Positions 33-21,342 of a DNA stretch of 43,416 bases are shown one piece after another. The notes under the pieces are model-generated. The model did not search any database and was not told the DNA's origin. It saw only the letters and a list, made by a program, of their open reading frames with translations. The DNA is from Gammaproteobacteria bacterium (GTDB taxonomy: Bacteria; Pseudomonadota; Gammaproteobacteria; Arenicellales; CAJQKF01). How positions within the stretch are numbered: the stretch's first letter is position 1; every line of letters begins with the position of its first letter. The DNA lies in NCBI GenBank assembly GCA_030429125.1, contig JAUIDF010000001.1, positions 1 through 43,416 of the forward strand, given 5' to 3'. Both the position numbers and the translations under genes were made by a program.

Positions 33-1949
33 TCACACCGTAACTGTCGGACGTGCCCAGCGTGTGGGTCGGCGGCAGGCGCGACAGGATCGCAAACTTG
101 CCGGGGGTGTTCGTCCTTTCCCAGATCTGCGTGGCCAGAAGCCGGCCGACGAACCGATCACCAGGGGTTCGCGGTATGGGTCCGCATCGGCCGCCGGTCG
201 CTCGACGACGTACTCGTAGGGATGCGGCAGCACCACGTGGGGCACGCCGTGTCGTTCGAGCTCGTCGCGCAGCAGGTCCGTGGTGACGATGACGAGGTCG
301 CAGGCGCGCAGCAGCGGCCACATCGGCGCCCACAGCCGGTCGGACTCCCACATCAGGTACATGGCGACGGTCGCGTCGAGCCGCTTGCGCGCGCGGGCGA
401 TGCGTTCGAGTTGACGCTCGATGGCCTTTTGATTCGGGTGCAGCCCGACCACGTCGAGGTACAGGCCGCCCTGGAAGAGGTCGGGGCGCTGTTCGTGGGC
501 GTCGGGGGCGACCGGTTGAAGCACGCGGGCATCGAAGGCGGACGGCAGCTCGTCGAGGCTCTTGTAGCGAATGGCGGGTGAATCGAACACCAGTCCGTCG
601 AGCAGGCGCAGGTGTCGGCCGATGCTGTCGCGCGGATTGTCCCAGCCGCAGTAGACGATGCTCGTGAACGCGGGCGGTTCCGCCTCGGGCACCGCGGTCG
701 CGGGGCGCGATGTCGCCCGGCGGCCTGCCGCTTCGTAGGCGGCGCGGATGGCGCTCTCGTCCACGAGGTCGCGGCACGCTTCGGCGAAGGTGTGCTGGTC
801 GCGGCATTGAAGGGCGGTGTCGATCCGCGCGAGAAACGGCGCCAGCGCACGCGCCCATGCATAGCGGGTGCGAATCGATGCCGACGCCGCCTCGACCCGT
901 TCGTGCTCGACGTCCCACTGTGCCACCGCGTGACGCATCCGGTCGACCAGATGATCCTCGTCGATGGCCCGCATGTGCCCGCAGAAATGGTCGACGCGCG
1001 CCGCGCGCAGCATCTCCCCGGTATTCAGGATCATCGCATTGCCGTCGTCGAGGTAGTCGGCCAGTCCCGTATGCGCCGGCGCGATGACCGGCGTTGCGCA
1101 GGCGATCGACTCGAGCGGCACCAGCCCGAAGCCCTCGCCCAGCGACGGGTGCACGGTGCAATGCGCCGCGGCGTAGCGCCGTGCCACGATCGCCTCGTCG
1201 AGGCCGCCGGTCGACACGAACTCGATCTGCGCGGCAATCGCCGCGTCGGGTGGCGGCAGCCAGCGATGGTCGGTCACCGCGAGTCGCAGCATCACGTCGT
1301 CGCGGCCCGCGAACGCGGCGCGAAAACACCGCAGCAATTCCGCGTAGCCCTTGCGCTGGGCAACCTGGTGGCGAAAGGCATTGAAGAACACGAAACGATC
1401 CCGCTCGCGCGCAGGCGGATCGGGCGCGAAGGCCGGCGAGACCCCGTGCGGCACGATCATCACCGGTGCGTTCACCCCCGAATCGATGAAGGCGCGGCGG
1501 CAGAACGAGGAGGGTACGCAGACGAGGTCGAAACGGTTGCAGGCCTGTACCCAGTGGGGAAGGATGCGATCGGTCTCGCAGGCGAACAGGCCCACGGTCA
1601 CACCGTGTTGGAAGAACCACTCGGGCGCGTGCGTCGGGAAGCCGAGGAAGACGCCCACGTGCGCGCGGCGGTTCAGGCCTTCCTGCGGCGATAGCGGCGT
1701 GCCGTCGAGGGCGCCGCCCGCGTAGTCGCACACCGACACGGCGCCGATTGTCTCGGCCAGTGCCGAGGCCACGGCGCGCGACACGTTGGCGTAGGAGTCC
1801 CGGCCGCCCGGAAAGCCGTAGAACTGCACTCGCGTATCGTCGCGGGCGGGCGCGTCGAAGGCGATGGCCGGCGATTGTCGGGGCGGTGTCAGCCGGAACA
1901 CGGTCGAGGTGCGAGACACGTCCGGCCTGTCCCCTGGTTTGTCGTTCAT
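33..1949 (-). CDS. Glycosyltransferase, GT-B fold / GT4 family, apparently two-module; 3' end possibly frameshifted or continuing beyond the window
   Basis: 638-aa minus-strand ORF. It contains the GT4 donor-binding signature HPSLGEGFGLVPLESIACATPVIAPAHTGLADYL (E-x7-E). Residues ~430-600 look like the N-terminal half of a second GT-B module. It starts 13 nt after the UbiA gene stop on the same strand. The last ~30 codons (SGKGRTPPASLRSCRACRRPTRWARPTVTV) look non-coding-like; see the frameshift finding. Confidence 0.8.
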   Translation of the reverse strand: MNDKPGDRPDVSRTSTVFRLTPPRQSPAIAFDAPARDDTRVQFYGFPGGRDSYANVSRAVASALAETIGAVSVCDYAGGALDGTPLSPQEGLNRRAHVGVFLGFPTHAPEWFFQHGVTVGLFACETDRILPHWVQACNRFDLVCVPSSFCRRAFIDSGVNAPVMIVPHGVSPAFAPDPPARERDRFVFFNAFRHQVAQRKGYAELLRCFRAAFAGRDDVMLRLAVTDHRWLPPPDAAIAAQIEFVSTGGLDEAIVARRYAAAHCTVHPSLGEGFGLVPLESIACATPVIAPAHTGLADYLDDGNAMILNTGEMLRAARVDHFCGHMRAIDEDHLVDRMRHAVAQWDVEHERVEAASASIRTRYAWARALAPFLARIDTALQCRDQHTFAEACRDLVDESAIRAAYEAAGRRATSRPATAVPEAEPPAFTSIVYCGWDNPRDSIGRHLRLLDGLVFDSPAIRYKSLDELPSAFDARVLQPVAPDAHEQRPDLFQGGLYLDVVGLHPNQKAIERQLERIARARKRLDATVAMYLMWESDRLWAPMWPLLRACDLVIVTTDLLRDELERHGVPHVVLPHPYEYVVERPAADADPYREPLVIGSSAGFWPRRSGKGRTPPASLRSCRACRRPTRWARPTVTV

Positions 1950-1962
1950 AAGGTGACCTGTT

Positions 1963-2859
1963 CTACCGGGCCGCCCATGCGATCACAACGCACGATGCGG
2001 CGGCAAGTGCCAGGGTCAGCCGGTCGCTTGCCGCGAATACGACCGGGTCGATGTGCAAGTCGCCTCGTCGTGCGAGCGAGATCAGGCGCAACAGCCAGTA
2101 GCCGAGCATTGCCGCCAGCAGCCACAACGGCCAGGCGGAGGAATAGAAGCGATCGGCGCTGGGCGAAAAGGCATAGGCGATGAGCACCGCCGTGGCGAGG
2201 CCGGTACTGGCGCAGCCGAAGCGGAACAGCCTGTTCCGGTCCGAATCGTCGTAGGGTCGGCCCGGCACCCGATCGTCCGTACCCGGCCGGCAGACCTCGG
2301 CAATCTCGGCCAGGCGTTTCGCCAGGGCGACGGTCAGCAGCAACGATCCGGCCAGCGACAGCAGCCAGGGTGACGGATCGACGCCGGTGGCCACCGCGCC
2401 GCCGACGAGGCGCAGCAGGTACAGGCTCGTCAGTGTCACGATGTCGACGAGATAACGCTGCTTCGCCCAGGTAGTGTAGACCGTTGCGGCCAGTACGTAC
2501 ACGACAAGCACGGGCCAGGCGCGCGAGCCCATCGCCGCTGTCGCGGTGACCGCCACCAGCGGCAGCAGGGCGGCGCCGCCGAGCGCCACGCGGGTCGTCA
2601 TGTGCCCAGAGGCAATGGCGCGGCGGCGCTTGGCGGGGTGGCGTGCGTCGTCCTCGCGATCCTTCCAGTCGTTGAACAGGTACACGCCGGACGCGCACAG
2701 GCTGAAGCCGATAAACACCACCGTCGCGTCGAGCCAGGCGCCGGGCTCGTGGAGACGGTGCGCTGCCAGCAACGGTACGAACACCAGCAGGTTCTTCGAC
2801 CAGTGGTGAGGACGCAGCGCCCACAGCAGCGCGTCGATGGTGTCACGCCCGATCCTCAT
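1963..2859 (-). CDS. UbiA-superfamily polyprenyl-phosphate/prenyl transferase, resembling the decaprenyl-phosphate phosphoribosyltransferase (Rv3806c-like) branch
   Basis: Uses the internal ATG at 2859 of track ORF 1963..3600. The upstream part of that ORF is Arg/Gly-rich and overlaps the better gene 2856..4325. From MRIGRDTIDALLWALRPHHWSKNLLVFVPLLAAH onward it is a multi-TM protein with the Asp-rich motif FNDWKDREDDARH (NDxxDxxxD). An ATGA stop/start overlap with the upstream gene lies at 2856-2859. The sub-branch assignment is from memory of the family N-terminus, not computed. Confidence 0.85.
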   Translation of the reverse strand: MRIGRDTIDALLWALRPHHWSKNLLVFVPLLAAHRLHEPGAWLDATVVFIGFSLCASGVYLFNDWKDREDDARHPAKRRRAIASGHMTTRVALGGAALLPLVAVTATAAMGSRAWPVLVVYVLAATVYTTWAKQRYLVDIVTLTSLYLLRLVGGAVATGVDPSPWLLSLAGSLLLTVALAKRLAEIAEVCRPGTDDRVPGRPYDDSDRNRLFRFGCASTGLATAVLIAYAFSPSADRFYSSAWPLWLLAAMLGYWLLRLISLARRGDLHIDPVVFAASDRLTLALAAASCVVIAWAAR

Positions 2860-4325
2860 GGCGATTGGCGAACGGCGACAACCGCGGACTTCACGATCGG
2901 TTCGGTCCACGGTTCGCGCCACAGAAGATAACGCACCAATTCGCCCATGGACGGTGTGCGCTCGTGCGCATGCCACCACAGCCGCACGGGCACCTCGCGC
3001 CACTGGTAGCCGTCGCCGAGCACTTGCGACACCGTCTCGCGGTCGGCCGCATCGGCAACCGCGAGGACCGGCGAGGGGTCCGCCACGGGGTCGCCGAATC
3101 GCACCGGGAGGTGTCGCCAGTACCAGGCGAGGGGCCAGCTGGCGCCGCCCGACACCGAGGCATAGCGATCGACGCCCGGACCGATGAACGGCGACGCGTC
3201 GATCACGGCGTCGAAGCCGTCGACCGTGGTGGCATAGTGCAGCGCCTCGACCCGGTCGTTGCGCGGGTATTCGTGGTGGTGCAGGAAGACCGCGCGGAAG
3301 GCGACGGCCGCGGTCAGGACCAGCGCCGTGGTCGCGATGGTGCGACTGAACCATCGCCCGCGCGGCCCGAAGGTGCGCGCCAGTTGCGCGCCGGCCAGCG
3401 GCACGAAGGCCCACACCTGGTGAACCGCCAGCCAGGGCGTCTTCTCGCCGAGCCAGGCGTACATCACGATGGACGACAGGCCGAAGCAGATCAGCGCGAT
3501 TTCGAACGCACGGACTTCCCGTCGGCGGACGATCCACGCCAGCGCGGCGCCCATGATCAGAAACTCGTACACGCCGATCCGGAACAGGTGATACCACCAC
3601 GGGCCGTCGATGCGCGCGGCGTCATGCTGACCGGTCCAGTAGCGCACCGCGTCGATGGCGAACGTCCAGTCTCCGGGACGCGACAGAAAGAACGTGTAGA
3701 GCAGCAGCACGACCACGACGAAGACCGACAGCGCCTGCGCGATGGGCACGCGCAGGCGCCAGGCGGCGGTGAGCAGCCGACCCGGCCGCAGCGGCCAACG
3801 GCAGGCGGCCGCCACCATCAGCCAGGTCGCGACGGCGAGAAATACCGTCACGAAGGCATTCTCCTTGGCGCCGAAGGCGAGCGCCGCCCAGAACCCCGCC
3901 CACGGCCAGGCGCTGGCACTATCGTCGCGCAATGCCAGGTAGAGCGACAGCAGGCTGGCGCTGGCCGCGAACATCACCAGCAGGTCCATGGCCAGGAAGC
4001 GGCCGTAGTAGAGGAACATCGGCGAGATGGTGACCAGCAGGCCGCTCCACCACGCCGCCTTCATGCCGAGCGGGCGTTTCAGTCGCCATGCCAGCCACAG
4101 GAACGACACCCCGGTCAGCGCGGCCGGCAGCCGGGCCACGAAGTCGCCGTCGCCGAACAGCAGAAAGCCGAGCGCAGTCAGGTAGTAGAGAAGCGGACCG
4201 TGGTAGGCGGGATCGTAGGCGTAGCGTCCCTCGAGCAGGAGGTCGAGGGACAGCTTGGCGTGGATGGCCTCGTCGGCGTGCAAGGGTCGCTCCGCGAGAC
4301 CCGCGAGGTGCAGCACGCACGACAA
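2856..4325 (-). CDS. TIGR03663-like polytopic membrane protein (GT-C / PMT-ArnT-like putative glycosyltransferase, function unknown)
   Basis: 489-aa hydrophobic ORF. Near the N-terminus it has RPLHADEAIHAKLS (DE dipeptide) and YHGPLLYY (HGP tripeptide), the invariant residues I recall for TIGR03663. The track start (TTG 4325) truncates the first TM helix. The frame stays open upstream, and a CTG at 4385 overlapping the upstream stop (CTGA) would give SIDKLARSPGFWPWAALFALSCVLHLAGL. The true start is therefore uncertain (4325-4385). Confidence 0.75.
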   Translation of the reverse strand: MSCVLHLAGLAERPLHADEAIHAKLSLDLLLEGRYAYDPAYHGPLLYYLTALGFLLFGDGDFVARLPAALTGVSFLWLAWRLKRPLGMKAAWWSGLLVTISPMFLYYGRFLAMDLLVMFAASASLLSLYLALRDDSASAWPWAGFWAALAFGAKENAFVTVFLAVATWLMVAAACRWPLRPGRLLTAAWRLRVPIAQALSVFVVVVLLLYTFFLSRPGDWTFAIDAVRYWTGQHDAARIDGPWWYHLFRIGVYEFLIMGAALAWIVRRREVRAFEIALICFGLSSIVMYAWLGEKTPWLAVHQVWAFVPLAGAQLARTFGPRGRWFSRTIATTALVLTAAVAFRAVFLHHHEYPRNDRVEALHYATTVDGFDAVIDASPFIGPGVDRYASVSGGASWPLAWYWRHLPVRFGDPVADPSPVLAVADAADRETVSQVLGDGYQWREVPVRLWWHAHERTPSMGELVRYLLWREPWTEPIVKSAVVAVRQSP

Positions 4326-4381
4326 CGCGAACAGCGCCGCCCAGGGCCAGAACCCGGGCGAGCGTGCCAGTTTGTCGATAC

Positions 4382-6412
4382 TCAGAATTGCACCACCCTC
4401 GCCTCGTTCGACGACAGCACGACGTCGCCCGCCGCCTCGATCGCGTCCAGCGCCATGGCCGGGTAGCGGCTGCGCTCGACGCTGCCGATGACGACGAGCG
4501 CGATGTTCTCGCGCGCGGCCAGCCGTCGTACCCGGTCGACGTCGCCCGCGGAGTATAGGTCATCGGCCACGCGCCAACGCCGTTCGAGTTCCGGTTCGAC
4601 GCCGGCACCGCGCCAGAAGCGTTCGTGCCGGCGCCAGCCGAGGTAGCCGGGCGTACCGGTGGCGGCGGCAATGCGGCCGGCATCCTCGTAGGCGCGGCCG
4701 GGCGCCTCGAGCAGCGCGCCGCGCGGGGCCCGGTCACGCACGAAGGCGACCACGGCGCGGTCGCCGGCCGCCATCCAGCGCAGGCCGTCGAGCCCGGGTT
4801 CGCGGTCGAGGCCGGCGCCGACCAGCGCCAGGGCATGCGGCAGGGAAGCGACCAGGAGCGCGGCGCAGACGACACGCCTCGCGGCGTTCGACGGAAAGGC
4901 GTTGCAGACAATGGCCGGCAGCGCCACGGCAATGAGCATCCAGCCCTGCACGTAGGTCTTGAACACGGTGTTGGCGCGGCGAAAGGCGTCGCCGTAGTCG
5001 TCTCTTACGATCACGATCTCGGGCACCGCGAACAGGCCGAGGCCCAGTACCGCGATCCACACGGCGCACCGCGGGGCCGGATCGCGGGCGCACGACGCGG
5101 TCCAGGCGGCGAGCGCGGCGAGGGCCAGCAGTACCACCAGCAGCGGACGGCCGCTGGCGGCGGCGACCGCGACCGCGAGCGCCGAGGCGCCCCACAGCCC
5201 GGTCACGCCGAGGCGGCGGTCGTCGGCCGCACGGGCCGCCAGTCGAAACAGGCCGGCGGCCAGCGGGACCAGCACGATACCGGCATAGAGGAACAGCGCC
5301 CCGGGCGTCGTCTGCGTCCGCGCGAACTCGAGACCGTTCGCCGGCGGCTCGAATCGCGAGAAGAACGGGTAGGCGAGCCATGCAGCGGCCGCCAGCGCCA
5401 GGGCGGCCGACGCCGTCGCGAAGAGCGCGCCATGCCGATCTTCACGCCCGCGCACGGCGGCGCACGCCGCCAGTATCGCCACCAGCGCCGCCAGCGTCGG
5501 TGCCAGCCAGGGATTGGCCATGGCGGCGGCGGCGGTCAGCACCGCGAGCAGCGCCAGGCCGTAGCGTGGGGTTCCGGACCCGAACGCGACCAGGGCGAGG
5601 AGCAGCGCGGCCAGCAGCATGGGCGCCGAGGTGAAGTGCGCGTGCAAGTCGCCGAGCCACGTGGTGAACAGCGGGTACTCGGTGATCGTCCCGGTGACCT
5701 GTCGGGAGGATGCCCAGGTATCGATGCCCCCCGGGTCGCGTGTCACGGCCAACTGGCGCACGCCGTCCAGGGTGCCGGAGAAGGTGCAAAGAAAAGCGCC
5801 GAGCAGCGCCATGGGGGCGGCGGCGCCGAGCCGCGATGCGACAGCCCACGCCATCGAGAAGACCGACGCGCCGACCGAGGCGACCGCCAGGTTGTAGACG
5901 TACTCCGTGGGGATGCCGGTGAGACGCGCGGGAATCACCCACGGCATCAGCCCGAAGTAGTAGTAGTTGAGCGTCTCGCCGGCCAGCCAGAAATCGGGCG
6001 GCGGGAATGCGCGTGCGCCGAGCAGGGTGTTGAGTATGCCGAAATCGAGCGGCTTCTCGGTGCCCCGGATCTCGGGCGTTTGAAGTCGCAGCAGGAGGAT
6101 CGCGGCGAAGGCGGCGAGGAATACGAGCTCGGCCCGGGCGATGCGACCGGCGAAGGGCGCATCGAGCCGCAGGTGCTTGACGGACAGGAGCAGGCCGGCC
6201 GCGAGCAGGGCAATGCCGGCCAGCGGCCACGGCGACATGCCGAGATGGGCAGCGCCCCAGGCGGCGGTCGCCGCGACCACGAGGGAGATCGTGCGCGATC
6301 CGGTCCAGGCGAGCGCGGGCTCCAGGTCGAGGCGGCGCAGCAGCGGATATAGTGCCGGCGCCGCCAGCCACGTCGCCAGGTACCACAGCGGCAGGTAGAA
6401 TGAAATCGTCAC
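4382..6412 (-). CDS. DUF2298 / Chlor_Arch_YYY (TIGR03662) integral membrane protein, function unknown
   Basis: 676-aa very hydrophobic ORF with RGTEKPLDFGILNTLL, ETLNYYYFG (the YYYxG motif) and TEYPLFTTWLGDLHAHF. It is the first gene of a minus-strand gene string running 6412 -> 33. Confidence 0.8.
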   Translation of the reverse strand: MTISFYLPLWYLATWLAAPALYPLLRRLDLEPALAWTGSRTISLVVAATAAWGAAHLGMSPWPLAGIALLAAGLLLSVKHLRLDAPFAGRIARAELVFLAAFAAILLLRLQTPEIRGTEKPLDFGILNTLLGARAFPPPDFWLAGETLNYYYFGLMPWVIPARLTGIPTEYVYNLAVASVGASVFSMAWAVASRLGAAAPMALLGAFLCTFSGTLDGVRQLAVTRDPGGIDTWASSRQVTGTITEYPLFTTWLGDLHAHFTSAPMLLAALLLALVAFGSGTPRYGLALLAVLTAAAAMANPWLAPTLAALVAILAACAAVRGREDRHGALFATASAALALAAAAWLAYPFFSRFEPPANGLEFARTQTTPGALFLYAGIVLVPLAAGLFRLAARAADDRRLGVTGLWGASALAVAVAAASGRPLLVVLLALAALAAWTASCARDPAPRCAVWIAVLGLGLFAVPEIVIVRDDYGDAFRRANTVFKTYVQGWMLIAVALPAIVCNAFPSNAARRVVCAALLVASLPHALALVGAGLDREPGLDGLRWMAAGDRAVVAFVRDRAPRGALLEAPGRAYEDAGRIAAATGTPGYLGWRRHERFWRGAGVEPELERRWRVADDLYSAGDVDRVRRLAARENIALVVIGSVERSRYPAMALDAIEAAGDVVLSSNEARVVQF

Positions 6413-6504
6413 CGATCGCCCTCAAGCGGTAGCAGGACCCGCGAGCGGGGAATCCGTTCCACCTGTCGCGCCATCGCCGGGCACGACGCGGGGAGCCCCT
6501 GCCC

Positions 6505-9500
6505 TTGAAGAGCCAGCATCACTGCGCGCGTGTCGCCCTCATGGTACTCGTCCTCGGCGCCGTCGCCTGGGCGGCGGCGGTGCGTTTCGCGTTCAACGAC
6601 TGGGACGGCCTCGCCAACCTGCATCCGGACGAACGTCACCTGGCGCGGGTGGTGGCGGCGGTCGAGATTCCCCCCGCCTGGTCCGACTACCTCGATGCCG
6701 ATGTCTCGCCGCTGAACCCCCGCGAACGCGGCGTCGACCTGTTCGTCTACGGCGACCTGCCGGTCACCCTGGCGCGGCTGGCCGCGGAAAGCTTAGCCGA
6801 TCTCTGCGGGCAGTCAATGTCGGTGCCCGCGCCGCTTGGGCGCGCTGCCTGTGTCGACGCCACCGGCAGCCCGGTGTCGTGGACCGACATCGACGGCATC
6901 ACCCGGCTCGGTCGCGCCCTGTCGTCGCTGTTCGCGCTGTTGAGCGTGGTGCTGACCGGGCTGATCGCGTGGCGGCTCGCCGGCGCGGCGGCCGGCGTCA
7001 TCGCCACCTGGCTGGCGGCGGGATGCGTCCTGTCGATCCAGTCGTCGAACTTCTTCACCGTCGACGCAGCGGCGACCGCCTTCGTGCTGGCGTCGTTTGT
7101 TTGCGTGCTGTACTGCCGCCGCCTGCCGCGGGACTGGCCGGCCATGCTGCTGGCCGGGTTCGCCCTCGGGGCGGCGGCCGCTTGCAAGATCACCCTGCTT
7201 ACGTTCGCCGTCGTGCCGGCCGCCGCCGTCATCGCGGTGGCCATGGCCGAACCGGCCGCTCGTTCGGTCCGCGCCACGATTGGCATCGCGGCGATGTCGG
7301 TGGGCCTGTACGTGGCGGTGAGAGTGCTGTCGCCCAGCGCCTTCGACGGATGGGTCGGTCTCGACCAACGCTGGCTCGAAGACCTCCGCGTGGCGCGTGC
7401 GCTGGTCAGCGGGTCGGTGGATTATCCGCCGGGCGTGCAGTGGACCGGCCGCGTCCCCTGGCTGTTTCCGCTGCACACTCTGGTGACGTGGGGCATGGGC
7501 CTGCCGCTGGCAGCGGTGGCGCTGGGCGGCTGGCTTGCCTGGGGTGTGGCCGCCGTGCGGCGTATGCCCGCGATGGGCCCGAGGGGATTTCACGATCCGG
7601 CGGCTCGCGGCCTGGCGCTTGCGTGGCTATGGGTTGCCGTGTTCTTCGCGTGGCAGGGGGGTCAATGGGTTTCGACCCTGCGCTACCTGCTGCCCATGGT
7701 CTTTTTCCTGGTCGTCTTCGCGGCCTGGGCGCTGTCGCGCTGGTGGCGCCAGGGGCGCGTGTCGGCGTGGGCTCGCCGCGGCGCGGTGCTCGGCGTGATC
7801 GGCCTGTCCCTGGCCTGGACGTTCGCGTTCCTCGCCGTCTACGCCCCGCCGCATCCGCGCCTGGCGGCCTCGGACTGGATCAGCGCCCGGTTCGACCCGG
7901 GCGCGGTAATCGGCTACGAGTACTGGGACGACCCGTTGCCCGTCGGTGGCGACAGTGGCGACAGCTTCGAACGGGTCGCCCTGGACCTGTATGCCGAGGA
8001 CACGGCCGCCAAGCGCCAGCGCCTCGTCGACCAGCTCGCGTCGATCGACTACCTGGTGCTGTCCAGCAACCGGCTCGTTGCCTCGATTCCGCGCCAGCCG
8101 ATGCGCTATCCCATGACCGGCCGCTACTACGCGGCGCTGACGAGTGGCGCGCTGGGGTTCGAGCCGGTCGCGGATTTCGCCGCCTGGCCGCGTCTCGGGC
8201 CGTTCGTGTTTCCCGACCAGGAATGGCCGCTGCCGCCCGCTCTGCGCGCCGGCGACGTGGTCGTGCCGCTGCCGCCGGCCGAGGAGGCGTTCAGTGTCTA
8301 CGATCATCCGCGGGTGATCGTCTATCGAAAACGTGCCGACTTCTCGGCGTCGCTGGTGTCGCAGGTGCTGTCGGCCGTGGATGTCGAGTCCGCCTACCAC
8401 GGCTTTCGTCCGCGCGCGGAAACCGCCGCGCCCGACGGCCTGTTGTTCACCCCCGCGCAATGGCGAGCGCGCGAGACGCGTGCCGCGCCTGCGGGCGACG
8501 GCGGCGACGGCGGTGACGGCGGCATGCCGCGACACGTCCTCGCGTGGCTCGCCGCTTCCCTGATCCTGGGCTGGCTGGCCATGCCGGTGGTCGCGCGACT
8601 CGCCCCCGGGCTCGCCGACGGCGGCGCCTCGCTGGCGCGCGTTTTCGCCATCGTCGCCGTCTCCCTGGGCGTGTGGTGGGCGGCAAACACGGGATGGGGG
8701 GCAAACACGGCGCGTGGCGCGTACGCGGCCGTCGCGCTGCTCGCTCTCGTGTCGGTCCTGTCGTGGCGGCGGGCGCGCGTGCCGATTGCGCGACGCACCT
8801 GGCTGATCCCGGAGGCGGTGTTCGTCGTCGCCTTCGCCGTGGCACTGGTGGTGCGGGCGGGCACACCGGAACTGTGGCACCCCGTATTCGGCGGCGAGAA
8901 GCCGATGGACTTCGCCTACTTCAATGCCGTGCTGCAAAGCCCCGCGCTCCCGCCCCACGATCCGTGGTTCGCCCTCGGCGTTCTCAACTACTACTACTTC
9001 GGCTTCGTCATGGTGTCGGTGCTGACGAAGTTGACGGCGGTACCGCCGGCGGTCGCCTACAACCTCGCCATGGCGCTGTGGTTCGCGCTCCTGTGCCAGG
9101 TCGCGTTCGGCATCGGCTTTCATCTCTCGGCGCGGCTGGCCAGCCGCCGGTCCGGCTATCGTCCGCTTGCCGGCGGCGTGCTGGCCGCCCTGCTGACCGG
9201 TTGTGCCGGCAACCTGGTACACGCGGTGATGCAGCTCCGCGGCGAATGCCGGGTGCTTTCCGTCGATCCCTGCGTCTTCTGGAATGCGAGCCGCGCCGTT
9301 GCCGCCGCGCCCGGCGAGCCGGCGCCGATCACCGAGTTCCCGTTCTTCACGATGCTCTACGGCGATCTGCATGCACACTTTCTGTCGCTGCCCGTGCTGC
9401 TGCTCACGGTCGGCCTGGCGCTGGCCTGGACGGGCCTGCGCACCGGCTTGTCGAACCCTGTCGTCGACGGGGCTCGCGCGGCGGTGGTCGGCGCGTTGAT

Positions 9501-10836
9501 CGCGGTGCTCTACATGACCAATGCCTGGGATGCGCCGGTGGCCCTGGCGCTGGTCGTCATGCTGGTGGCCAGCGCCGTGGCGCGGGATCCGGGCACGCCG
9601 CGACGCAAGACGTTCGTGGCGCTGGCCATCGTCGCGCTGGCGATCGGCGTCGCGGCAATGGTCGCGACGCCGTATGTCGCACACTTCGCCACCGACTACG
9701 GTCGCCTTGCCTGGTGGCGCGGCTCGCGCACCACGCTGCCCGGTTTCCTGGCGATGCTCGCCCCTTTCCTGTTTCCACTGGCCGCGGCCTGGCTGCTGGG
9801 GCGCCGCCGGGTGCCGGCCTCGGCGAGCGGGCTCGGCGACGTTGCCCGATACTTCGTTGCCGGCGCGGTGGTGGTGCCGGCCAGCGCGCTCGTGTTACTG
9901 AGCGCGCCGACGGCGCTGATCGTTCTGCCGCTACTGCTGGTCACGTGGCAATCGTGGCGCCGCGGCGATTTCGACGCACCGTTGGCGTGCCTCGTGGGCA
10001 CCGGTCTCGGCCTGGTCCTGGCGGTCGAGTTCGTGCACGTGCAGGGCGACGTCGGCCGCATGAACACCGTGTTCAAGTTCACCTATCACGCATGGGTGCT
10101 GCTCGGCATCTCCGCCGCCGTGCTCGTGCCGAGGCTGTGGTACCTCGCGGGGCGGCGGCGCGCGGCGGTCCGCCTTCCGGTTCGCGCATCGGTACTGCTT
10201 CTCCTGGCCGGTGCGCTGTCCTACCCGCTGTTCGCGGTGCCGGCGAAGTGGGCCGGACGCCCCGTGCTCGATGCCGGCTGGCAGCTGGACGGGACCGCCT
10301 ACCTGCGCCGGCCGCACGCCCGCGAAGCGGGCAGGATCCAGTTGCCGGACGGCGATCTCGCCGCCATCCGCTGGCTGCGGGCGAACGCCGGGCCGGTCGA
10401 CGTCGTCGCCGAGGGGGCGTCGACCGCGGCCTACACCTGGGGTGGACGGATCGCGGTCCACACCGGTCGGCCCACGCTGCTCGGCTGGCTGGGCCATCAG
10501 CGACAGCAGAAGTCGATCCTGCCGCGCCCCGTGGTGGATCGGCGGGCGGCGGATGTCGAGCGGCTCTACGGCTCGGGGGATGCGCAGACGGTGCGTCGCA
10601 TCCTGGCACGGTATCACGTCGCCTATATCGTCGTCGGTGGTTGGGAGCGTGCACACTACGATGCAAATGCGCTGGCGCTCTTCGACCGGCTCGTCGCGCG
10701 CGGCGAACTGGTCGAGCGCTTGCGGCAGGACGCGGTGGTGATCTACGAGGTCGCGGCGCGCGCCCCGCTCGAGGCGTCGCTGCTGCAGCCGGTGTTCCTC
10801 GCGCGGAATCGAGTTGCGATGCCTAGCGGCCGTTGA
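6505..10836 (+). CDS. Fusion protein: N-terminal GT-C/PMT_2-ArnT-like membrane glycosyltransferase module + C-terminal DUF2298/Chlor_Arch_YYY module
   Basis: 1443-aa ORF. TTG start at 6505 with GGGGAG 9 nt upstream; ATG 6541 is an alternative. The N-terminal ~640 aa are polytopic with an HPDERH loop after TM1. A GDGGDGGDG linker follows. The C-terminal ~770 aa carry FGGEKPMDFAYFNAVL, GVLNYYYFG and TEFPFFTMLYGDLHAHF, clearly paralogous to 4382..6412. Divergently transcribed from that gene. Confidence 0.8.
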   Translation: MKSQHHCARVALMVLVLGAVAWAAAVRFAFNDWDGLANLHPDERHLARVVAAVEIPPAWSDYLDADVSPLNPRERGVDLFVYGDLPVTLARLAAESLADLCGQSMSVPAPLGRAACVDATGSPVSWTDIDGITRLGRALSSLFALLSVVLTGLIAWRLAGAAAGVIATWLAAGCVLSIQSSNFFTVDAAATAFVLASFVCVLYCRRLPRDWPAMLLAGFALGAAAACKITLLTFAVVPAAAVIAVAMAEPAARSVRATIGIAAMSVGLYVAVRVLSPSAFDGWVGLDQRWLEDLRVARALVSGSVDYPPGVQWTGRVPWLFPLHTLVTWGMGLPLAAVALGGWLAWGVAAVRRMPAMGPRGFHDPAARGLALAWLWVAVFFAWQGGQWVSTLRYLLPMVFFLVVFAAWALSRWWRQGRVSAWARRGAVLGVIGLSLAWTFAFLAVYAPPHPRLAASDWISARFDPGAVIGYEYWDDPLPVGGDSGDSFERVALDLYAEDTAAKRQRLVDQLASIDYLVLSSNRLVASIPRQPMRYPMTGRYYAALTSGALGFEPVADFAAWPRLGPFVFPDQEWPLPPALRAGDVVVPLPPAEEAFSVYDHPRVIVYRKRADFSASLVSQVLSAVDVESAYHGFRPRAETAAPDGLLFTPAQWRARETRAAPAGDGGDGGDGGMPRHVLAWLAASLILGWLAMPVVARLAPGLADGGASLARVFAIVAVSLGVWWAANTGWGANTARGAYAAVALLALVSVLSWRRARVPIARRTWLIPEAVFVVAFAVALVVRAGTPELWHPVFGGEKPMDFAYFNAVLQSPALPPHDPWFALGVLNYYYFGFVMVSVLTKLTAVPPAVAYNLAMALWFALLCQVAFGIGFHLSARLASRRSGYRPLAGGVLAALLTGCAGNLVHAVMQLRGECRVLSVDPCVFWNASRAVAAAPGEPAPITEFPFFTMLYGDLHAHFLSLPVLLLTVGLALAWTGLRTGLSNPVVDGARAAVVGALIAVLYMTNAWDAPVALALVVMLVASAVARDPGTPRRKTFVALAIVALAIGVAAMVATPYVAHFATDYGRLAWWRGSRTTLPGFLAMLAPFLFPLAAAWLLGRRRVPASASGLGDVARYFVAGAVVVPASALVLLSAPTALIVLPLLLVTWQSWRRGDFDAPLACLVGTGLGLVLAVEFVHVQGDVGRMNTVFKFTYHAWVLLGISAAVLVPRLWYLAGRRRAAVRLPVRASVLLLLAGALSYPLFAVPAKWAGRPVLDAGWQLDGTAYLRRPHAREAGRIQLPDGDLAAIRWLRANAGPVDVVAEGASTAAYTWGGRIAVHTGRPTLLGWLGHQRQQKSILPRPVVDRRAADVERLYGSGDAQTVRRILARYHVAYIVVGGWERAHYDANALALFDRLVARGELVERLRQDAVVIYEVAARAPLEASLLQPVFLARNRVAMPSGR
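8494..8520 (+). repeat. 3 x 9-nt tandem repeat (GGCGACGGC, GGCGACGGC, GGTGACGGC) encoding the GDG-GDG-GDG inter-module linker
   Basis: Read directly from the sequence. It is followed by GGC and then an in-frame ATG at 8524 (MPRHVLAWLAAS...) that opens the DUF2298 module. Confidence 0.9.
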
Positions 10837-12259
10837 CGAGGGCCGGGTGATCGATGGTCGTCTCGGCGCTGCCGAGCAGCCACCTCTCGACCACCTCGCG
10901 CCCCTGCATGTAGCTGTGATCCATGTTGCCCACCTCGTACTTCCAGGCCCCGAACCGGCCGCGGCTGAAGATGCCGAGCGGCTCCAGCTCGCCGCGAGCG
11001 GCGTCGAGGATGTGGTCGCGATCCAGGGTTGGCACCGGGTAGCCGTGCTCGGCGCGATAGTGCCAGCTGCTGCGTACCGCGTCGCCCGCGAGGCCCAGCC
11101 GGCGGCAGGCGTCGAGACAGTCGGCGGCGAGCCGGTGGGTGTCGCGTGGCCGGTGCGCGGAGTGGGAGACCTCCAGCAGCAGCGACCAGCAGCCCGGGGG
11201 CGCGTTGTGATCGCTGTAGTTGCTGAACACCGTGGCGCGATAGAACGGGCAGTCGTGGTCGGGGAAGTACATCCAGCTGTGCTCGCCGATCGGCGCGGGC
11301 GGCGCGCCCTCGAAGCCAATGCCGATGACGTCGACGGCGGCATGCGCCAGTTTGCCGGCCAGGTCGGACAGTCCGGCGAAGCCGCATTGGCGCACCAGGT
11401 GGGTCAAGGGCATGGTGCTCAGCAGGTGGCGGTAGCGGAACCGGCGGCCGTCGGCCGTTTCCGCCACGCGCTCGGCGGCCCGCACCCGCACCACGGCGGC
11501 GCCGAACTCGAGCCGCGACGGCGGCAGTCGCGATGCCAGCGATCGCCAGATGGCGCCGGTCCCGCCACGGCACGGAAAGCGGAATTCGCTGTTCGGGCCC
11601 CAGGTCTTCGGTGAGCGCGCCGGACGCGACTCGTCGGACGACGGCGGCGCCACGCGTTCACCCAGCCATTGCGTGCTCATCCGCTCCAGGGGATGCGACC
11701 ATACCTTGCGGTTGTAGGGCTGCATGAACAGTTCCGCGATGCCGTCGCCAAATGTTGTTCGGATGTAGGCGTCGAAGGACGAACGGTCCGGCGCGATGCC
11801 GGCGGCAACGAGCGCCGCCAGTCCGTCCCGGCATCGCCGGGCCGCCGCCGCGGGCAGGGCGTCGAGGTGATTCTGGAACGGGTAGGGGACCCAGGCACCG
11901 GCGCAGTGGACGTAGGCCCGCCGCGGATGATGCACCCAGTCGTCGGCGTCGATGACGGCAGCGAGCATCGCGTCGTAGGCCGGGTAGTGCGAAAAGATGA
12001 CGTGGCCGCCGACGTCCCAGGTGAAGCCGTCGTGCCCGAAGCTCGCGGCGAGTCCGCCGGGTACCGGTTGGCGCTCCAGCAAGCGGAAGTCGGCGCCGGC
12101 CTCGGCCAGTCGCTGCGCTGCCCCCAGTCCCGTGGGTCCGGCGCCGATGACGAGGTAGTCGACGGTCGTGGTCAAGGTGTGTCGGGTCAGAGTGGATTTC
12201 GAGGTTTGGGGTATACTACTCCCCCAGTAACGGCGCGCGTCGTGCAACCGGCGGGACAT
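10823..12259 (-). CDS. glf: UDP-galactopyranose mutase, long (eukaryote-type) form; FAD-dependent
   Basis: 478-aa ORF with the Rossmann motif DYLVIGAGPTGLGAA. It then has DVGGHVIFSHY, WVPYPFQN, LFMQPYNRKVW, WLGERVAPP, FRFPCRGGTG, CPFYRATVFSNYS, HGYPVPTL, SRGRFGAWKYEVGNMDHSYMQG and a terminal VNGR. These blocks match, in the same order, my recollection of fungal/protozoan UGM (e.g. the Aspergillus enzyme). The start is uncertain: ATG 12259, or an in-frame TTG giving MTTTVDYLVIG. The 3' end overlaps the convergent 6505..10836 gene by 14 nt. Confidence 0.8.
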   Translation of the reverse strand: MSRRLHDARRYWGSSIPQTSKSTLTRHTLTTTVDYLVIGAGPTGLGAAQRLAEAGADFRLLERQPVPGGLAASFGHDGFTWDVGGHVIFSHYPAYDAMLAAVIDADDWVHHPRRAYVHCAGAWVPYPFQNHLDALPAAAARRCRDGLAALVAAGIAPDRSSFDAYIRTTFGDGIAELFMQPYNRKVWSHPLERMSTQWLGERVAPPSSDESRPARSPKTWGPNSEFRFPCRGGTGAIWRSLASRLPPSRLEFGAAVVRVRAAERVAETADGRRFRYRHLLSTMPLTHLVRQCGFAGLSDLAGKLAHAAVDVIGIGFEGAPPAPIGEHSWMYFPDHDCPFYRATVFSNYSDHNAPPGCWSLLLEVSHSAHRPRDTHRLAADCLDACRRLGLAGDAVRSSWHYRAEHGYPVPTLDRDHILDAARGELEPLGIFSRGRFGAWKYEVGNMDHSYMQGREVVERWLLGSAETTIDHPALVNGR

Positions 12260-12321: not shown

Positions 12322-12936
12322 ATGAAGAAGTCGTCCGGCGATCCGCGCGAGCATTCCACGTCCTCCTCCGGTCGGGTCGGCCGGCGACGGCTGATCAAGG
12401 TCGTGGCCGCCGGCGGCGGCGTGGCCACCGGCGCGGCCTTGGTGCCATCGAAGTGGACCCAGCCGATCATCGAGTCGGTGACGCTACCCGTGCACGCCCA
12501 GACCACCACCGAGAGTGTCACGTTCGCGGCGCCGTTGACCGGCGCCATCGGCATGAACCGGGTTCGCCGCAATGGCTCGGTGCTCGAGTCGCTGCTGGCG
12601 CCCGCGCATGCTGAAGAGGCGCCCAGCGAACTCGCGCCGATCGGTAACCTGGAAAACGCGTGCATCGTTCTCACCTTCCTGCTGGATCGTGTCGACGCAC
12701 AGATCAACACGTTCGCCAACGGATCGTTCTTCGGCAACCTCGCCAATCCCGTTGGCGCCGCCTTCGACATCAACGTCACCGGACCCTACATTGTCGGGGT
12801 GTTCCCCAACACCCTGCCGTTTCCGACCGCCGTCAACGGCATCGTCATCGGCGACGGTGGCAACCTCGCCTACAACGGAGCCGTCAACGGCATCTGCGTG
12901 CCGGCTTCCGTCGAGCCCACGTCGACGCCGGACTAG
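12322..12936 (+). CDS. Hypothetical exported protein with Tat-type signal peptide
   Basis: ATG at 12322 (MKKSSG...) inside track ORF 12262..12936. Twin-arginine motif GRRRLIKVVAAGGGVATGAALV followed by an AHA-type cleavage region. I recognise no family. The TAG stop lies inside the left arm of the inverted-repeat element. Confidence 0.55.
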   Translation: MKKSSGDPREHSTSSSGRVGRRRLIKVVAAGGGVATGAALVPSKWTQPIIESVTLPVHAQTTTESVTFAAPLTGAIGMNRVRRNGSVLESLLAPAHAEEAPSELAPIGNLENACIVLTFLLDRVDAQINTFANGSFFGNLANPVGAAFDINVTGPYIVGVFPNTLPFPTAVNGIVIGDGGNLAYNGAVNGICVPASVEPTSTPD

Positions 12937-13102: not shown

Positions 13103-13254
13103 GGGGCGGCCGTCCGGCGGGCGCTGTCCGGTTGTCGCGTCGCCAGTCCGGTTTCGCCGCCCGTCGATCCGCGACGGTTCTTCCCGCGACCCTGACCGAC
13201 GTCGACGGCCGAACCGTCGATGGCGCGCCGACCGGATTCCTGCATCGTGGGCGC

Positions 13255-14385
13255 GTGGAACATTCCGGTATCGCGCGACGACGATATCTGCTCCTCACGG
13301 AATACTTTCATCCCCACTGGACCGGGCTCTCGACGTCGTTCCTGTCGCTTGCCCGCACGCTGTCGGCCGGCGGTCACGAGGTGACCGTGCTGACCACGCG
13401 CCATGCCGATGAGCTTGCGCCGGCCGAATGCCTCGACAACATCGAAGTACGCCGGGTGCCTCACGCGTTCCGCATCAGTCGTACGCACTATGCCTGGCGC
13501 ATCCTGCCGGCCGCCTGGCGCTCGATGCGGCGCTGTGACGTGGTCATCATCAATTCACCCTTCAGCAATGTACTTCCCTGCGCGATGATGGCGCGGCTGT
13601 TTCGCCGCCGCCTCGTCATCTTTCACCAGGGCGATCTCGTATTGCCGCGGCGCCGGCGCCTGCCGCTGTCCGCGGTGGTGCTGGAGCGGTGCTTCGATGC
13701 CTTCACCCTGCCGGCCATGGCGCTGGCGCACGTCGTATCCACCTATACGGCCGACTATGCCCGTCACTCACGCGTGATGCGGCACTTCACCGCCAAGTGC
13801 CGACCCTTCGTGCCGCGCCCGTTGGTCGAAAGCGAACCGCCCCGCACGAATCGTCCGGCGCCATCGCCGGCTGCCCCGCGCATCGGGTTCGCCGGCCGGT
13901 TCGCCGACGAGAAGGGCCTCGATGTCCTGCTCGATGCGATTCCCCGCGTGATCGAACGGATTCCCGGCGCCCGCTTCGTGTTCGCCGGCGCCACCGAGCT
14001 GCCCTACGAGGACACCTTCGCCCGCCTCGGCGAGCGCCTCGGGCGCGTCGCCGCCCATGTCGACTTCCTCGGACTGTTGCATGGCGACGCGCTGCGCGAT
14101 TTCTACCGGGGACTCGACGTCTTCGTGCTGAGCTCGCGCACCGAATGCTTCGCCTTGACCCAGGCCGAGGCCGCGCTGCTCGGTGTGCCCGTGGTGGCAA
14201 CCGACGTGCCGGGCGCGAGAATGCTGGTGCGGGAAACCGGGTTCGGCGAGCTCGTACGTGCCGGTGATCCGGCAGCCCTCGCCGACGGCATCCTGCGCGT
14301 GCTACACGACCGTGCGCAGTACCTGTCGATGTACGACAACGTCGAGCGATTCTTCGAACGCCATGGACAGCCCGCCTTCGATTGA
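13255..14385 (+). CDS. Glycosyltransferase family 4 (GT-B)
   Basis: YLLLTEYFHPHWTGLSTSF (Glyco_trans_4-like N-terminus), FAGRFADEKGLDVLLDA, and SSRTECFALTQAEAALLGVPVVATDVPGA (E-x7-E region). The GTG at 13255 gives a typical ~377-aa protein. The track ORF starts at TTG 13132, and that upstream 41 aa is Arg-rich and doubtful. Confidence 0.85.
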   Translation: MEHSGIARRRYLLLTEYFHPHWTGLSTSFLSLARTLSAGGHEVTVLTTRHADELAPAECLDNIEVRRVPHAFRISRTHYAWRILPAAWRSMRRCDVVIINSPFSNVLPCAMMARLFRRRLVIFHQGDLVLPRRRRLPLSAVVLERCFDAFTLPAMALAHVVSTYTADYARHSRVMRHFTAKCRPFVPRPLVESEPPRTNRPAPSPAAPRIGFAGRFADEKGLDVLLDAIPRVIERIPGARFVFAGATELPYEDTFARLGERLGRVAAHVDFLGLLHGDALRDFYRGLDVFVLSSRTECFALTQAEAALLGVPVVATDVPGARMLVRETGFGELVRAGDPAALADGILRVLHDRAQYLSMYDNVERFFERHGQPAFD

Positions 14386-15181
14386 ATGCTACCTCGCCGG
14401 CGAGATCGATCCGGCCTTCGCCGCGCGCGCCCGCCTGATACTCGACGCCGTCGCCCGCGAGCAGCCGCTACGAATACTCGATGCAGGATGCGGGCGCGGC
14501 TTTTACCTGCGCATGGCGAGCCTGCTTTGCCGCCGGGGTACCATCATCGGCATTGATCGCGACGCCGACTGTGTCGCGCGCGCGCAAGGCGCGCTGCGTG
14601 GGCGGTCGAACGTCTCGATCATGCGCGGCGATATCTGCCGCCTGCCGTTCGACGACGACAGCTTCGATTTCATTGTCTGCAGCGAGGTGCTCGAGCACCT
14701 GCCGGACGACGATCGGGCGCTGATCGAACTCAGGCGCGTGCTCGCACCGGGCGGTACGCTGGCCGTCAGCGTGCCGTGCCGGGACTTCCCGTTTTCCTGG
14801 GACCCGATCAACTGGGTCCTGATGCGCGTCGCCGGTCGACACGTGCCGGCACGCATGCACTGGCTGGCCGGCATCTGGGCGGATCACGAACGGCTGTATT
14901 CCGCGCCGGAACTGGCACGGCTCGTGGGCCGGCTGTTCCGGCCGGACCGCTATCGCGCCGTGGTCCGGCGCTCATGGCCCTTCGCCCACCTCGTGTTCTA
15001 CGGCCTCGGCAAGAACCTCGTCGATCGTCTCGGCTGGTCGGCATTCGATCGCTTCGACCCGGCGCCGCCCGGCCGCGCCAGGCGGTTGTTGGCGCGCCTG
15101 TGCGCGCTGCCGTGCGGCGCGTTGGAATTCGATGCGACGTGCTCGCCCGCGGTCAATCTCGTTCTTCTCTCGCGCAAGTGA
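14363..15181 (+). CDS. Class I SAM-dependent methyltransferase
   Basis: ATG 14363 within track ORF 14183..15181. SAM motif I is LRILDAGCGRGFY, followed by FDFIVCSEVLEHLPD and LAPGGTLAVSVP. It overlaps the upstream GT4 stop by 23 nt, suggesting an operon. Confidence 0.85.
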   Translation: MDSPPSIECYLAGEIDPAFAARARLILDAVAREQPLRILDAGCGRGFYLRMASLLCRRGTIIGIDRDADCVARAQGALRGRSNVSIMRGDICRLPFDDDSFDFIVCSEVLEHLPDDDRALIELRRVLAPGGTLAVSVPCRDFPFSWDPINWVLMRVAGRHVPARMHWLAGIWADHERLYSAPELARLVGRLFRPDRYRAVVRRSWPFAHLVFYGLGKNLVDRLGWSAFDRFDPAPPGRARRLLARLCALPCGALEFDATCSPAVNLVLLSRK

Positions 15182-15882: not shown

Positions 15883-15885
15883 CGC

Positions 15886-15905
15886 CATCGACCCGCCGGT
15901 CGATG
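15886..15905 (+). terminator. Weak hairpin (8-bp stem CATCGACC/GGTCGATG, 4-nt loop) followed by CTTTC
   Basis: Read directly. It lies just after the FkbM stop and before the peptidase gene. There is no proper U-tract, so terminator function is doubtful. Confidence 0.3.
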
Positions 15906-15989
15906 CTTTCGCCCGTGCCCGCCACGTACCGCGTACGCGGGCCGCAAGGAGGAGAACCGGACGTCGCATCGCCGACGGGGAGGACGACC

Positions 15990-17870: not shown

Positions 17871-17875
17871 GCGCG

Positions 17876-18457: not shown

Positions 18458-18642
18458 CGGGCGCATCGCCCAACAGTCACCCGCATTGCCGCCGGCGGTG
18501 CCGGTGCCTTCTCGTCGCGGCGCACGGGGAAGGGCGACCCCGTCGCCGGTTTCCCCGCCTGCAACCAGCATGCATAATGACGCCATGAACGGGCGGCTCG
18601 CGCGCCGGGCGCCAGGCAGGGCGTCGCATCCGCCTTGACGAT

Positions 18643-21324: not shown

Positions 21325-21342
21325 TCCCCGGACCGCGCCGTG

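Follow-up and report, generated by a model that had tools for sequence, protein, structure and literature searches.

Introduction

GtrB-type enzymes load a sugar onto polyprenyl phosphate. The haloarchaeal pair Agl22/Agl23, as reportedly described by Lu et al. in 2020, consists of a dolichyl phosphate (Dol-P)-hexose synthase and a flippase-associated protein. A three-component pentofuranose system is known from Citrobacter youngae O1, where ORF15 (PPPRS-PRP) acts together with the MATE flippase ORF14 and the GT136 enzyme ORF12, a glycosyltransferase (GT) of the GT-C type (Kelly et al. 2024, PMC11127046). Here, we describe a locus at the start of a 43-kb stretch of contig JAUIDF010000001.1 from a Gammaproteobacteria bacterium (the whole stretch is referred to as the window). 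This locus encodes a UbiA-superfamily enzyme, a membrane protein of the TIGR03663 (Agl23) family and two modules of the YYY family (DUF2298; TIGR03662, PF10060). We consider it reasonably probable that these proteins form an extracytoplasmic glycosylation system that works on a lipid-phosphate-sugar donor, with the three-component logic of the Gtr and Arn systems in a pentofuranose version.

Organization of the locus

The window has a G+C content of ~69%, and long spurious open reading frames (ORFs) are therefore common in it. By their G+C content at the codon positions, the genes named in a preliminary description of this DNA are like real genes, and matches to hidden Markov models (HMMs), together with direct reading of the sequence, bore out these genes and their motifs at the positions given there. 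The locus comprises the following features:

33–1949, minus strand: GT4-family cytoplasmic glycosyltransferase (Pfam Glyco_trans_1_4, Glycos_transf_1, GT4-conflict); last gene of the minus-strand operon
1963–2859, minus strand: UbiA-superfamily polyprenyl-phosphate 5-phosphoribosyltransferase-like enzyme (PPPRS/DPPRS type), 298 amino acids (aa), by HMM and PDB matches
2856–4325, minus strand: TIGR03663 (Agl23 family) PMT_2-type polytopic membrane protein, 489 aa, by TIGR03663 and PMT_2 scores
4382–6412, minus strand: YYY/DUF2298 protein, 676 aa, by TIGR03662 and PF10060; first gene of the minus-strand operon
6413–6504, no strand: divergent intergenic region of 92 bp between the two operons
6505–8532, plus strand: N-terminal module of a 1443-aa fusion protein, a divergent PMT_2/ArnT-like GT-C module (sub-threshold PMT_2 match, HPDERH motif, Foldseek matches)
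8533–10836, plus strand: C-terminal module of the fusion protein, a second YYY/DUF2298 module (TIGR03662 over residues 677–1416)
10823–12259, minus strand: eukaryote-type (long-form) UDP-galactopyranose mutase (UGM), convergent with the fusion gene (14-bp tail overlap)

The TIGR03663 and UbiA genes are translationally coupled, as the preliminary description had claimed: an ATGA overlap at 2856–2859, read directly in the sequence, places the stop codon of the former on the start codon of the latter. The 92-bp region 6413–6504 is presumed to be a promoter region common to both operons. The only credible multi-transmembrane proteins of the window are the UbiA, TIGR03663, YYY and fusion proteins.

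The UbiA-type enzyme

The UbiA protein scored 277 bits with the NCBIfam model NF006088 (cutoff 351), 141 bits with NF008978 (cutoff 207), 118 bits with NF008977 (cutoff 234) and 104 bits with a further phosphoribosyltransferase model. The model NF006088 covers a fusion of HAD and UbiA, of which the window protein can match no more than the UbiA half (positions 191–480). Scores with the quinone and haem models were 40 bits for haem O synthase (CyoE), 23 bits for UbiA and 20 bits for menaquinone MqnP, with no MenA model among those listed. When the PDB was searched with the UbiA protein, the only matches at E <0.01 were two deposited Rv3806c sequences (8j8j; best E 1e-21). The enzyme thus belongs to the phosphoribosyltransferase branch to which it had been provisionally assigned (141–277 bits), and not to the quinone or haem branches (≤40 bits).

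The alignment with Rv3806c points in the same direction. Fourteen of the 16 functionally tested Rv3806c residues (PMC10994848, PMC11127046) are kept in the UbiA protein, as R16, K22, Y60, N63, D64, D67, D71, K77, R80, Y128, K133, Y147, K181 and E185; they correspond to the residues of Rv3806c for phosphoribosyl pyrophosphate (PRPP), Mg and lipid phosphate. In Rv3806c, the 5-phosphate of PRPP is bound by K28, Y70 and Y157, which are not conserved in UbiA enzymes that transfer prenyl groups (PMC10994848); all three are kept in the window protein. The PRPP-site residues that mark phosphoribosyltransferases (Rv3806c R22, K28, Y70, N73, K87, R90, Q135, Y138, K143, Y157 and K208) are kept at nine of 11 positions. 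The sequence NDWKDREDD fits the motif NDxxDxxxD (N63-D64-W-K-D67-R-E-D-D71). Together with the loop IV segment K181-R182-L-A-E185, residues N63, D64, D67 and D71 match N247, D248, D251, D255, R366 and E369 of ORF15 from Citrobacter, the motif and loop IV residues on which activity depends (PMC11127046).

Among the top 120 matches, the closest homologues of the UbiA protein (40–45% identity) were mostly HAD-UbiA fusions. Fusions of this type have been shown biochemically to make polyprenyl-P-ribofuranose (PMC11127046). In both HAD-UbiA loci that we examined, the operon also contains a DprE1-like gene (FAD_binding_4) and a DprE2-like gene (short-chain dehydrogenase); a GtrA gene is present in one of them. 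The window protein is a stand-alone enzyme of 298 aa without a HAD phosphatase domain. No DprE1/DprE2 gene (FAD_binding_4, adh_short) is present in the window, and scans of the window proteins found neither a DprE1/DprE2 pair nor a PAP2 phosphatase, in line with the preliminary description. Because the window has no epimerase, ribofuranose is the likelier donor sugar, and the UbiA enzyme, judged by its sequence, probably makes a lipid-linked ribofuranose donor.

The YYY/DUF2298 modules

The YYY protein (4382–6412) scored 343 bits with TIGR03662 (cutoff 300.25) and 291 bits with PF10060. The fusion protein (6505–10836) scored 496 bits with TIGR03662 over residues 677–1416 and 350 bits with PF10060. 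Both TIGR03662 scores are above the cutoff, which confirms the family assignment that had been made from motifs. The two modules are paralogues (34% identity, E 7e-52) and have in common EKP(L/M)DF, LNYYYFG, ITE(Y/F)P(L/F)FT..GDLHAHF and R(A/M)NTVFK. Across 42 homologues, Y150-Y152 and G154 of the YYYxG signature are invariant or nearly so, and the same holds for E119, D123, D140, E245, D255, H257, H259, R479, N481-K485, W593 and H596. These conserved residues group in three loops and the C-terminal domain.

An AlphaFold (AF2) model of YYY built from the 42-sequence alignment had a pLDDT (predicted local distance difference test) of 94 and a pTM (predicted template modeling score) of 0.95. When compared with the PDB by Foldseek, its 12 best matches were all GT-C enzymes (probability 1.00, E 2e-6 to 2e-3). 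The best of these were DPY19 (E 2e-6), yeast and human STT3, archaeal AglB and PglB, with a template modeling (TM) score of ~0.41 over 570–745 columns; PMT was also among the GT-C matches. The matches that followed were unrelated transporters with a probability of <0.3, and nothing but GT-C enzymes was found at E <0.01. YYY is therefore predicted to be a glycosyltransferase of the GT-C fold, as the preliminary description had suggested, because the confident model matches GT-C enzymes only. The model helices and the positive-inside rule indicate ~16 transmembrane helices and a C-terminal soluble domain at residues ~540–676. With this topology, the conserved loops and the C-terminal domain would face the outside. 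The positive-inside rule also puts the loop that follows helix 4, which contains the conserved segment E119-K-P-x-D123, on the outer side; the match of the model is at the level of the fold.

A GT-C-like fold might also serve another purpose. YYY and the TIGR03663 protein could be flippases or scramblases of lipid-linked sugars, or have some other membrane function, with the UbiA lipid being used by unrelated enzymes. The sole experimental activity for either family is indeed flipping, by Agl23 (PMC11182771), and no characterized DUF2298 member was found in the literature searched. We regard this explanation as highly improbable, because the invariant acidic, His and Arg clusters of YYY in outward loops and its conserved soluble C-terminal domain are traits of catalytic GT-C enzymes and not of scramblases. 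Moreover, GtrA-type flippase genes lie beside DUF2298 in haloarchaea, where a flippase role of YYY would be redundant.

Linkage of YYY to synthase genes in related loci

A scan of reference genomes with an alignment of 13 YYY sequences yielded 80 loci with YYY relatives, whose neighbouring genes were identified by translated searches. All relatives were ≤44% identical to the window YYY, and most came from Acidobacteriota of the class Thermoanaerobaculia. A GT2 gene was found downstream of YYY on the same strand in 70 loci, and most of the remaining 10 were short of downstream sequence. This GT2 is of the GtrB type (E 1e-98 to Synechocystis GtrB, 5ekp; E 1e-47 to ArnC; PgfS-like, 285 bits). YYY is thus linked to the gene of a lipid-phosphate-sugar synthase, which agrees with the polyprenyl-phosphate-sugar dependence proposed in the preliminary description. 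A TIGR03663-like gene was located downstream of YYY in 50 of the 80 loci, usually between YYY and the GT2 gene, and upstream of GtrB wherever both were seen. In ~30 loci, GtrB came immediately after YYY, and a TIGR03663-like gene was missing within 10 kb. Both haloarchaeal loci sampled, Natronomonas and Halarchaeum, have a GtrA gene beside DUF2298, and the former also has a Dol-P-hexose-synthase-like GT2. In Chloroflexus, a GT2 gene lies near DUF2298. These sampled distant members fit the pattern of the 80 loci.

The window shares the gene order YYY, TIGR03663, UbiA, GT4 with L003 (YYY 69%, UbiA 67% identity), the only close relative whose sequence is long enough. In these two, the UbiA gene holds the synthase slot that is taken by GtrB elsewhere (synthase swap). 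The GT4 orthologue of L003 is 82% identical. Another relative, L093 (YYY 48% identity), has retained the pair YYY-TIGR03663 and, divergent from it, the fusion gene; its contig ends before the next gene. Linkage of UbiA and UGM to YYY within the window's own clade was checked in L003 and L093. A metagenome scan for close relatives yielded only four distant loci (≤42% identity).

Two candidate neighbours were rejected. The sole UbiA match in the 80 loci (L085) is only 31% identical over 153 residues and lies 7.6 kb away, and the GT2 located 6 kb downstream in L003 is not of the GtrB type (28% identity over 95 residues).

The 1443-aa fusion protein

The N-terminal module of the fusion protein (residues 1–676) matched PMT_2 below threshold only (E 0.0016). 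Six homologues were detectable, of which four are partial DUF2298-annotated proteins aligned over this module and two are PMT_2/ArnT-like. The PMT_2 match was carried by two of the six, one of them among the four DUF2298-annotated proteins. The module contains the motif HPDERH, and H-x-D-E after the first helix is conserved in the alignment. Its AF2 model was of lower confidence (pLDDT 63). The 29 best Foldseek matches of this model were all GT-C enzymes (STT3, AglB, Pmt4, ALG9/12 and ArnT; E 1e-7 to 4e-3). Because the N-terminal half also appears GT-C-like in this lower-confidence model, the 1443-aa protein is predicted to be a tandem GT-C protein. The two halves of the fusion, together with YYY and the TIGR03663 protein, thus bring the number of GT-C-like modules in the two back-to-back operons to four. 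BLASTP revealed no similarity between the N-terminal module and the TIGR03663 protein.

A stand-alone gene resembling the N-terminal module directly follows YYY in seven of the 80 related loci. In Chloroflexus (locus L008, 2526–10004), two DUF2298 domains are joined to TPR repeats in a protein of 2492 aa, and a third DUF2298 gene follows immediately downstream; tandem YYY architectures thus exist in other phyla.

The TIGR03663 protein

The product of 2856–4325 scored 229 bits with TIGR03663 (cutoff 126.25) and 66 bits with PMT_2. It carries the DE and HGP motifs (HADEAIH and YHGPLLYY), so that its family assignment stands (229 vs 126 bits), and has H-x-D-E right after the first helix. A PDB sequence search with this protein gave no matches. 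Its description as a protein of a function-unknown family is outdated: NCBIfam names TIGR03663 "flippase activity-associated protein Agl23", and purified Agl23 of Haloarcula hispanica flips lipid-linked oligosaccharide in liposomes (PMC11182771). Because Agl23 flips and the window holds no other credible multi-transmembrane protein, the TIGR03663 protein is, by analogy, the only flippase candidate in the window.

Alternatively, this protein could be a second ArnT-like transferase instead of a flippase. It might even be the TIGR03663 protein, and not YYY, that acts as the pentofuranosyltransferase on the UbiA product, like the ArnT-like GT136 enzyme in Citrobacter. In that case, YYY would use a different donor as an enzyme like oligosaccharyltransferase (OST) or DPY19, or would act as a ligase or polymerase, and whatever flips the donor would be encoded elsewhere. 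The translational coupling of the TIGR03663 gene to UbiA is consistent with this, as are the PMT_2 domain and the DE motif directly after the first helix, which resembles D31/E34 of the GT136 enzyme ORF12. The best structural matches of YYY, too, are oligosaccharyltransferases and DPY19 rather than ArnT or Emb. We nevertheless consider this assignment unlikely. YYY precedes GtrB directly in ~30 of the 80 loci, and since these lack a TIGR03663-like gene within 10 kb, YYY alone is the constant partner of the synthase. Furthermore, flippase activity has been measured for Agl23, a member of the TIGR03663 family (PMC11182771). We therefore retain YYY as the predicted transferase and the TIGR03663 protein as the candidate flippase.

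UGM, GT4 and the cytoplasmic glycan island

Long-form eukaryotic UGM is unusual in a bacterium. The UGM at 10823–12259 is genuine, as first described: 445 of its residues (33–477) are collinear with residues 10–469 of the Trypanosoma cruzi enzyme (4dsg; E 1e-121), and it is likewise collinear with the UGM of Aspergillus fumigatus. The motifs GAGPTGLGAA, GGHVIFSHY and RGRFGAW(K/R)YEVGN are kept. In contrast, the bacterial short-form UGM (Glf) matched the window UGM with an E of 8e-5 only.

The preliminary description had wired the YYY system to this UGM and to the GT4 gene. This link did not hold, as a UGM homologue was present in none of the 80 related YYY loci, nor was a GT4, and the UGM gene is convergent with the fusion gene. 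UGM is thus a real neighbour, but not a conserved partner, of the YYY system. It probably serves the cytoplasmic GT2/GT4 island at 13–31 kb, and UGM and this island most likely represent a separate cytoplasmic part of glycan synthesis. The island contains the following genes:

13132–31926: GT4, methyltransferase, 893-aa dual-GT2 protein, further GT2, GT8, 2-oxoglutarate oxygenase, LpxL-like acyltransferase
13132–31926, remaining genes: MocA-type oxidoreductase, RmlC-like epimerase, APH-type kinase

The best match of the 893-aa dual-GT2 protein was chondroitin synthase (E 4e-22) and not GlfT2. Scans of the window proteins detected no initiating phosphoglycosyltransferase, Wzx, Wzy or ABC exporter.

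These results bear on the comparison with mycobacterial arabinogalactan that had been drawn from the gene content. In such an assembly line, UGM would provide UDP-galactofuranose for a galactan, and the GT-C proteins would polymerize a pentofuranan on it outside the membrane. A genuine UGM does abut the GT-C fusion gene and is followed by the polymerase-like dual-GT2 protein (chondroitin-synthase-like, E 4e-22) and several GT2/GT4 genes, and four GT-C modules could lengthen a chain stepwise, as Emb and Aft enzymes do. However, the absence of UGM and GT4 from all 80 related YYY loci argues against this scheme, as does the convergent orientation of UGM, which is not co-transcribed with the fusion gene. 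The flavoproteins found near DUF2298 elsewhere resemble CrtI or protoporphyrinogen oxidase (PPO) and not UGM. The window holds no GlfT2-type match, DprE1/DprE2, polyprenyl-phosphate N-acetylglucosamine-1-phosphate transferase, Wzx, Wzy or ABC exporter. In the relatives, YYY has just one GtrB as its partner, an arrangement typical of systems that add single sugars. An arabinogalactan-like line is therefore quite improbable: nothing specific speaks for polymerization of this type, with neither DprE1/DprE2 nor a GlfT-type gene present, and a closer precedent is the Citrobacter system (Kelly et al. 2024, PMC11127046).

A UGM-like flavoprotein as a conserved DUF2298 partner was rejected as well. 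The recurring amine-oxidase-family genes are CrtI/PPO-like and have only the FAD-binding N-terminus in common with UGM:

L008 12706–14367; L091 10021–11343; L007 1249–2577; L090 12393–13706: CrtI/PPO-like flavoproteins beside DUF2298 (Chloroflexus, Natronomonas, a further genome)

One such gene shares an operon with HAD-UbiA, DprE1-like, DprE2-like and GtrA genes. It is conceivable that these flavoproteins modify the polyprenyl carrier.

The GT4 gene lies at the end of the contig. Two short contigs of the same organism (L001 and L002), found by sequence look-up of UbiA, match the window with 100% identity over bases 128–3254 and differ from it over bases 1–127; an exact look-up of UGM gave no match. 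The GT4 of these contigs is an 804-aa protein with two GT4 stretches, of which the window keeps the first ~607 residues. Because bases 1–127 differ from otherwise identical contigs, the window GT4 is cut or chimeric at its end, and the last ~31 codons of its ORF are foreign, probably owing to a chimera at the contig end.

Other genes in the window

Small predicted exported proteins are encoded at 12322–12936 (plus strand) in the window, at 7113–8730 (minus strand) in L003 and at 4272–5410 (minus strand) in L001. They have a twin-arginine-like leader, the motif W(S/T)xP(V/I)(V/I)ESVxLPxHAQTT and a Thr/Ser/Gly-rich tail. The window gene is divergent from UGM; in the relatives, two pairs of 80 aa and 133 aa follow GT4. 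The proteins match no family, and their motif was found in none of the 80 Acidobacteriota loci. They could be acceptors of glycosylation.

Elsewhere in the window, at 34172–37702 (minus strand), an 843-aa TIR-domain protein with WD40 repeats adjoins an NYN-domain nuclease-like protein; together, the two resemble a module for defence or signalling. GH108 lysozyme and PG_binding_3 domains are encoded by an ORF (17216–18457, plus strand) that overlaps the 3′ part of a 798-aa ORF with a papain-like peptidase domain (15474–17870, plus strand).

Proposed mechanism

From the families to which the proteins belong, the GT-C fold, the arrangement of the operons, the conserved linkage of YYY to a synthase gene and the conservation of the PRPP site, we infer the identity of the donor, the acceptor, the role of the flippase and the direction in which the sugar is transferred, as follows. 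At the cytoplasmic face, the UbiA-type enzyme would transfer 5-phosphoribose from PRPP to polyprenyl phosphate. Because this enzyme has no HAD phosphatase domain, the 5-phosphate would be either removed by a separate phosphatase or retained on the donor. The sugar would probably stay ribofuranose, as no epimerase is present. The donor would then be flipped across the membrane, with the TIGR03663 protein as the candidate flippase. Outside, YYY would transfer the sugar to an acceptor that could be a protein or a glycan of the envelope; the transferase role is given to YYY because it constantly accompanies the synthase gene in different lineages. The divergent tandem GT-C fusion would probably add further residues or serve another acceptor.

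Several observations weigh against this scheme. With the phosphoribosyltransferase models of NCBIfam, the UbiA protein does not reach the curated cutoffs (141 vs 207 bits), and Q135 of Rv3806c, a ribose contact, and K208 are replaced in it by Ala125 and Val198, respectively. No phosphatase for the 5-phosphate is found among the scanned window proteins (no HAD or PAP2 match). UbiA and YYY are linked in only two independent lineages, those of the window and L003. The TM scores of YYY to known GT-C enzymes are moderate (~0.41). The literature searched for DUF2298, TIGR03662 and PF10060 contains no functional or biochemical study of any member. The role of the TIGR03663 protein is ambiguous, since its DE motif is typical of catalytic GT-C enzymes.

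The scheme can be extended to a more general proposal, which we put forward as tentative and rather doubtful. According to this proposal, DUF2298/YYY would be a widespread OST/DPY19-like GT-C family (Acidobacteriota, Chloroflexota, Archaea) that adds single sugars from polyprenyl-monophosphate donors to exported proteins or envelope glycans, and TIGR03663 would be a GT-C fold repurposed as a dedicated flippase. In the lineage of the window, a phosphatase-less PRPP-dependent synthase would have been swapped in, so that ribofuranose or ribofuranose-5-phosphate is transferred, with the small exported proteins with Thr-rich tails as possible acceptors.

The large DUF2298/TIGR03662 family, with members in Acidobacteriota, Chloroflexota and Archaea, now has a concrete and testable role, namely that of the predicted transferase of a three-component periplasmic glycosylation system. 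Two predictions appear to be new: that DUF2298 is the GT-C component that goes with GtrB-type synthases, and that the synthase was swapped in this lineage. The principle by which such systems operate was known before, and the finding is a functional prediction rather than a new principle of glycan assembly. It also places the Agl23 flippase family in a bacterial operon context and extends the pentofuranose three-component concept past Proteobacteria and Actinobacteria to new GT-C families.

Comparison with known systems

The Citrobacter system resembles the locus in that the window UbiA synthase is of the same clade, with HAD-UbiA fusions as its closest homologues, and is encoded beside membrane proteins of the GT-C fold; the lack of an epimerase again predicts ribofuranose. 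In contrast to Citrobacter, the window synthase has no HAD phosphoribose-phosphatase domain, and the window has no carbohydrate-binding module and no MATE, SMR or GtrA flippase. Its GT-C proteins are DUF2298, TIGR03663 and divergent PMT_2-like proteins, with four modules compared to one. As far as can be judged without a comparison to GT136 sequences, they do not belong to the GT136 family.

The mycobacterial decaprenyl-P-arabinose pathway (Rv3806c, Rv3807c, DprE1/DprE2, Emb/Aft; Glf/GlfT) has counterparts in the Rv3806c-like synthase, the GT-C proteins predicted to act outside and the nearby UGM of the window. Unlike this pathway, the window lacks DprE1/DprE2, PAP2, an Rv3789-like flippase, a GlfT2-like enzyme and any sign of polymerization, and its UGM is of the eukaryote type rather than the Glf type and is not conserved with YYY.

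The TIGR03663 protein (229 bits) is paired with a lipid-phosphate-sugar synthase gene in the same way as haloarchaeal Agl23 is with Agl22. However, the window is bacterial and the partner synthase is UbiA-type and not GT2, and flippase activity has been shown for the archaeal Agl23 only. As in the GtrA/GtrB/GtrV, ArnC/ArnT and PgfS/PgfM systems, the YYY-(TIGR03663)-GtrB operons of the relatives put YYY at the position of the GT-C transferase. The window differs from these systems in having a PRPP-dependent UbiA enzyme in place of the GtrB-type synthase, and DUF2298 differs from GtrV and ArnT in its ~16 transmembrane helices and STT3-like C-terminal domain.

The class A GT-C enzymes STT3/AglB/PglB and DPY19 share with the YYY model a bundle of many helices and, C-terminal to it, an extracytoplasmic domain (E 2e-6 to 3e-4). 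Nevertheless, YYY is only 10–13% identical to them, has three extra N-terminal helices and, instead of WWDYG or DxD, carries its own motifs EKPxD, YYYxG, TE(F/Y)PxF..GDLHxH and RxNTVFK. In further contrast to these enzymes, the gene context of YYY predicts a monophosphate-linked single-sugar donor.

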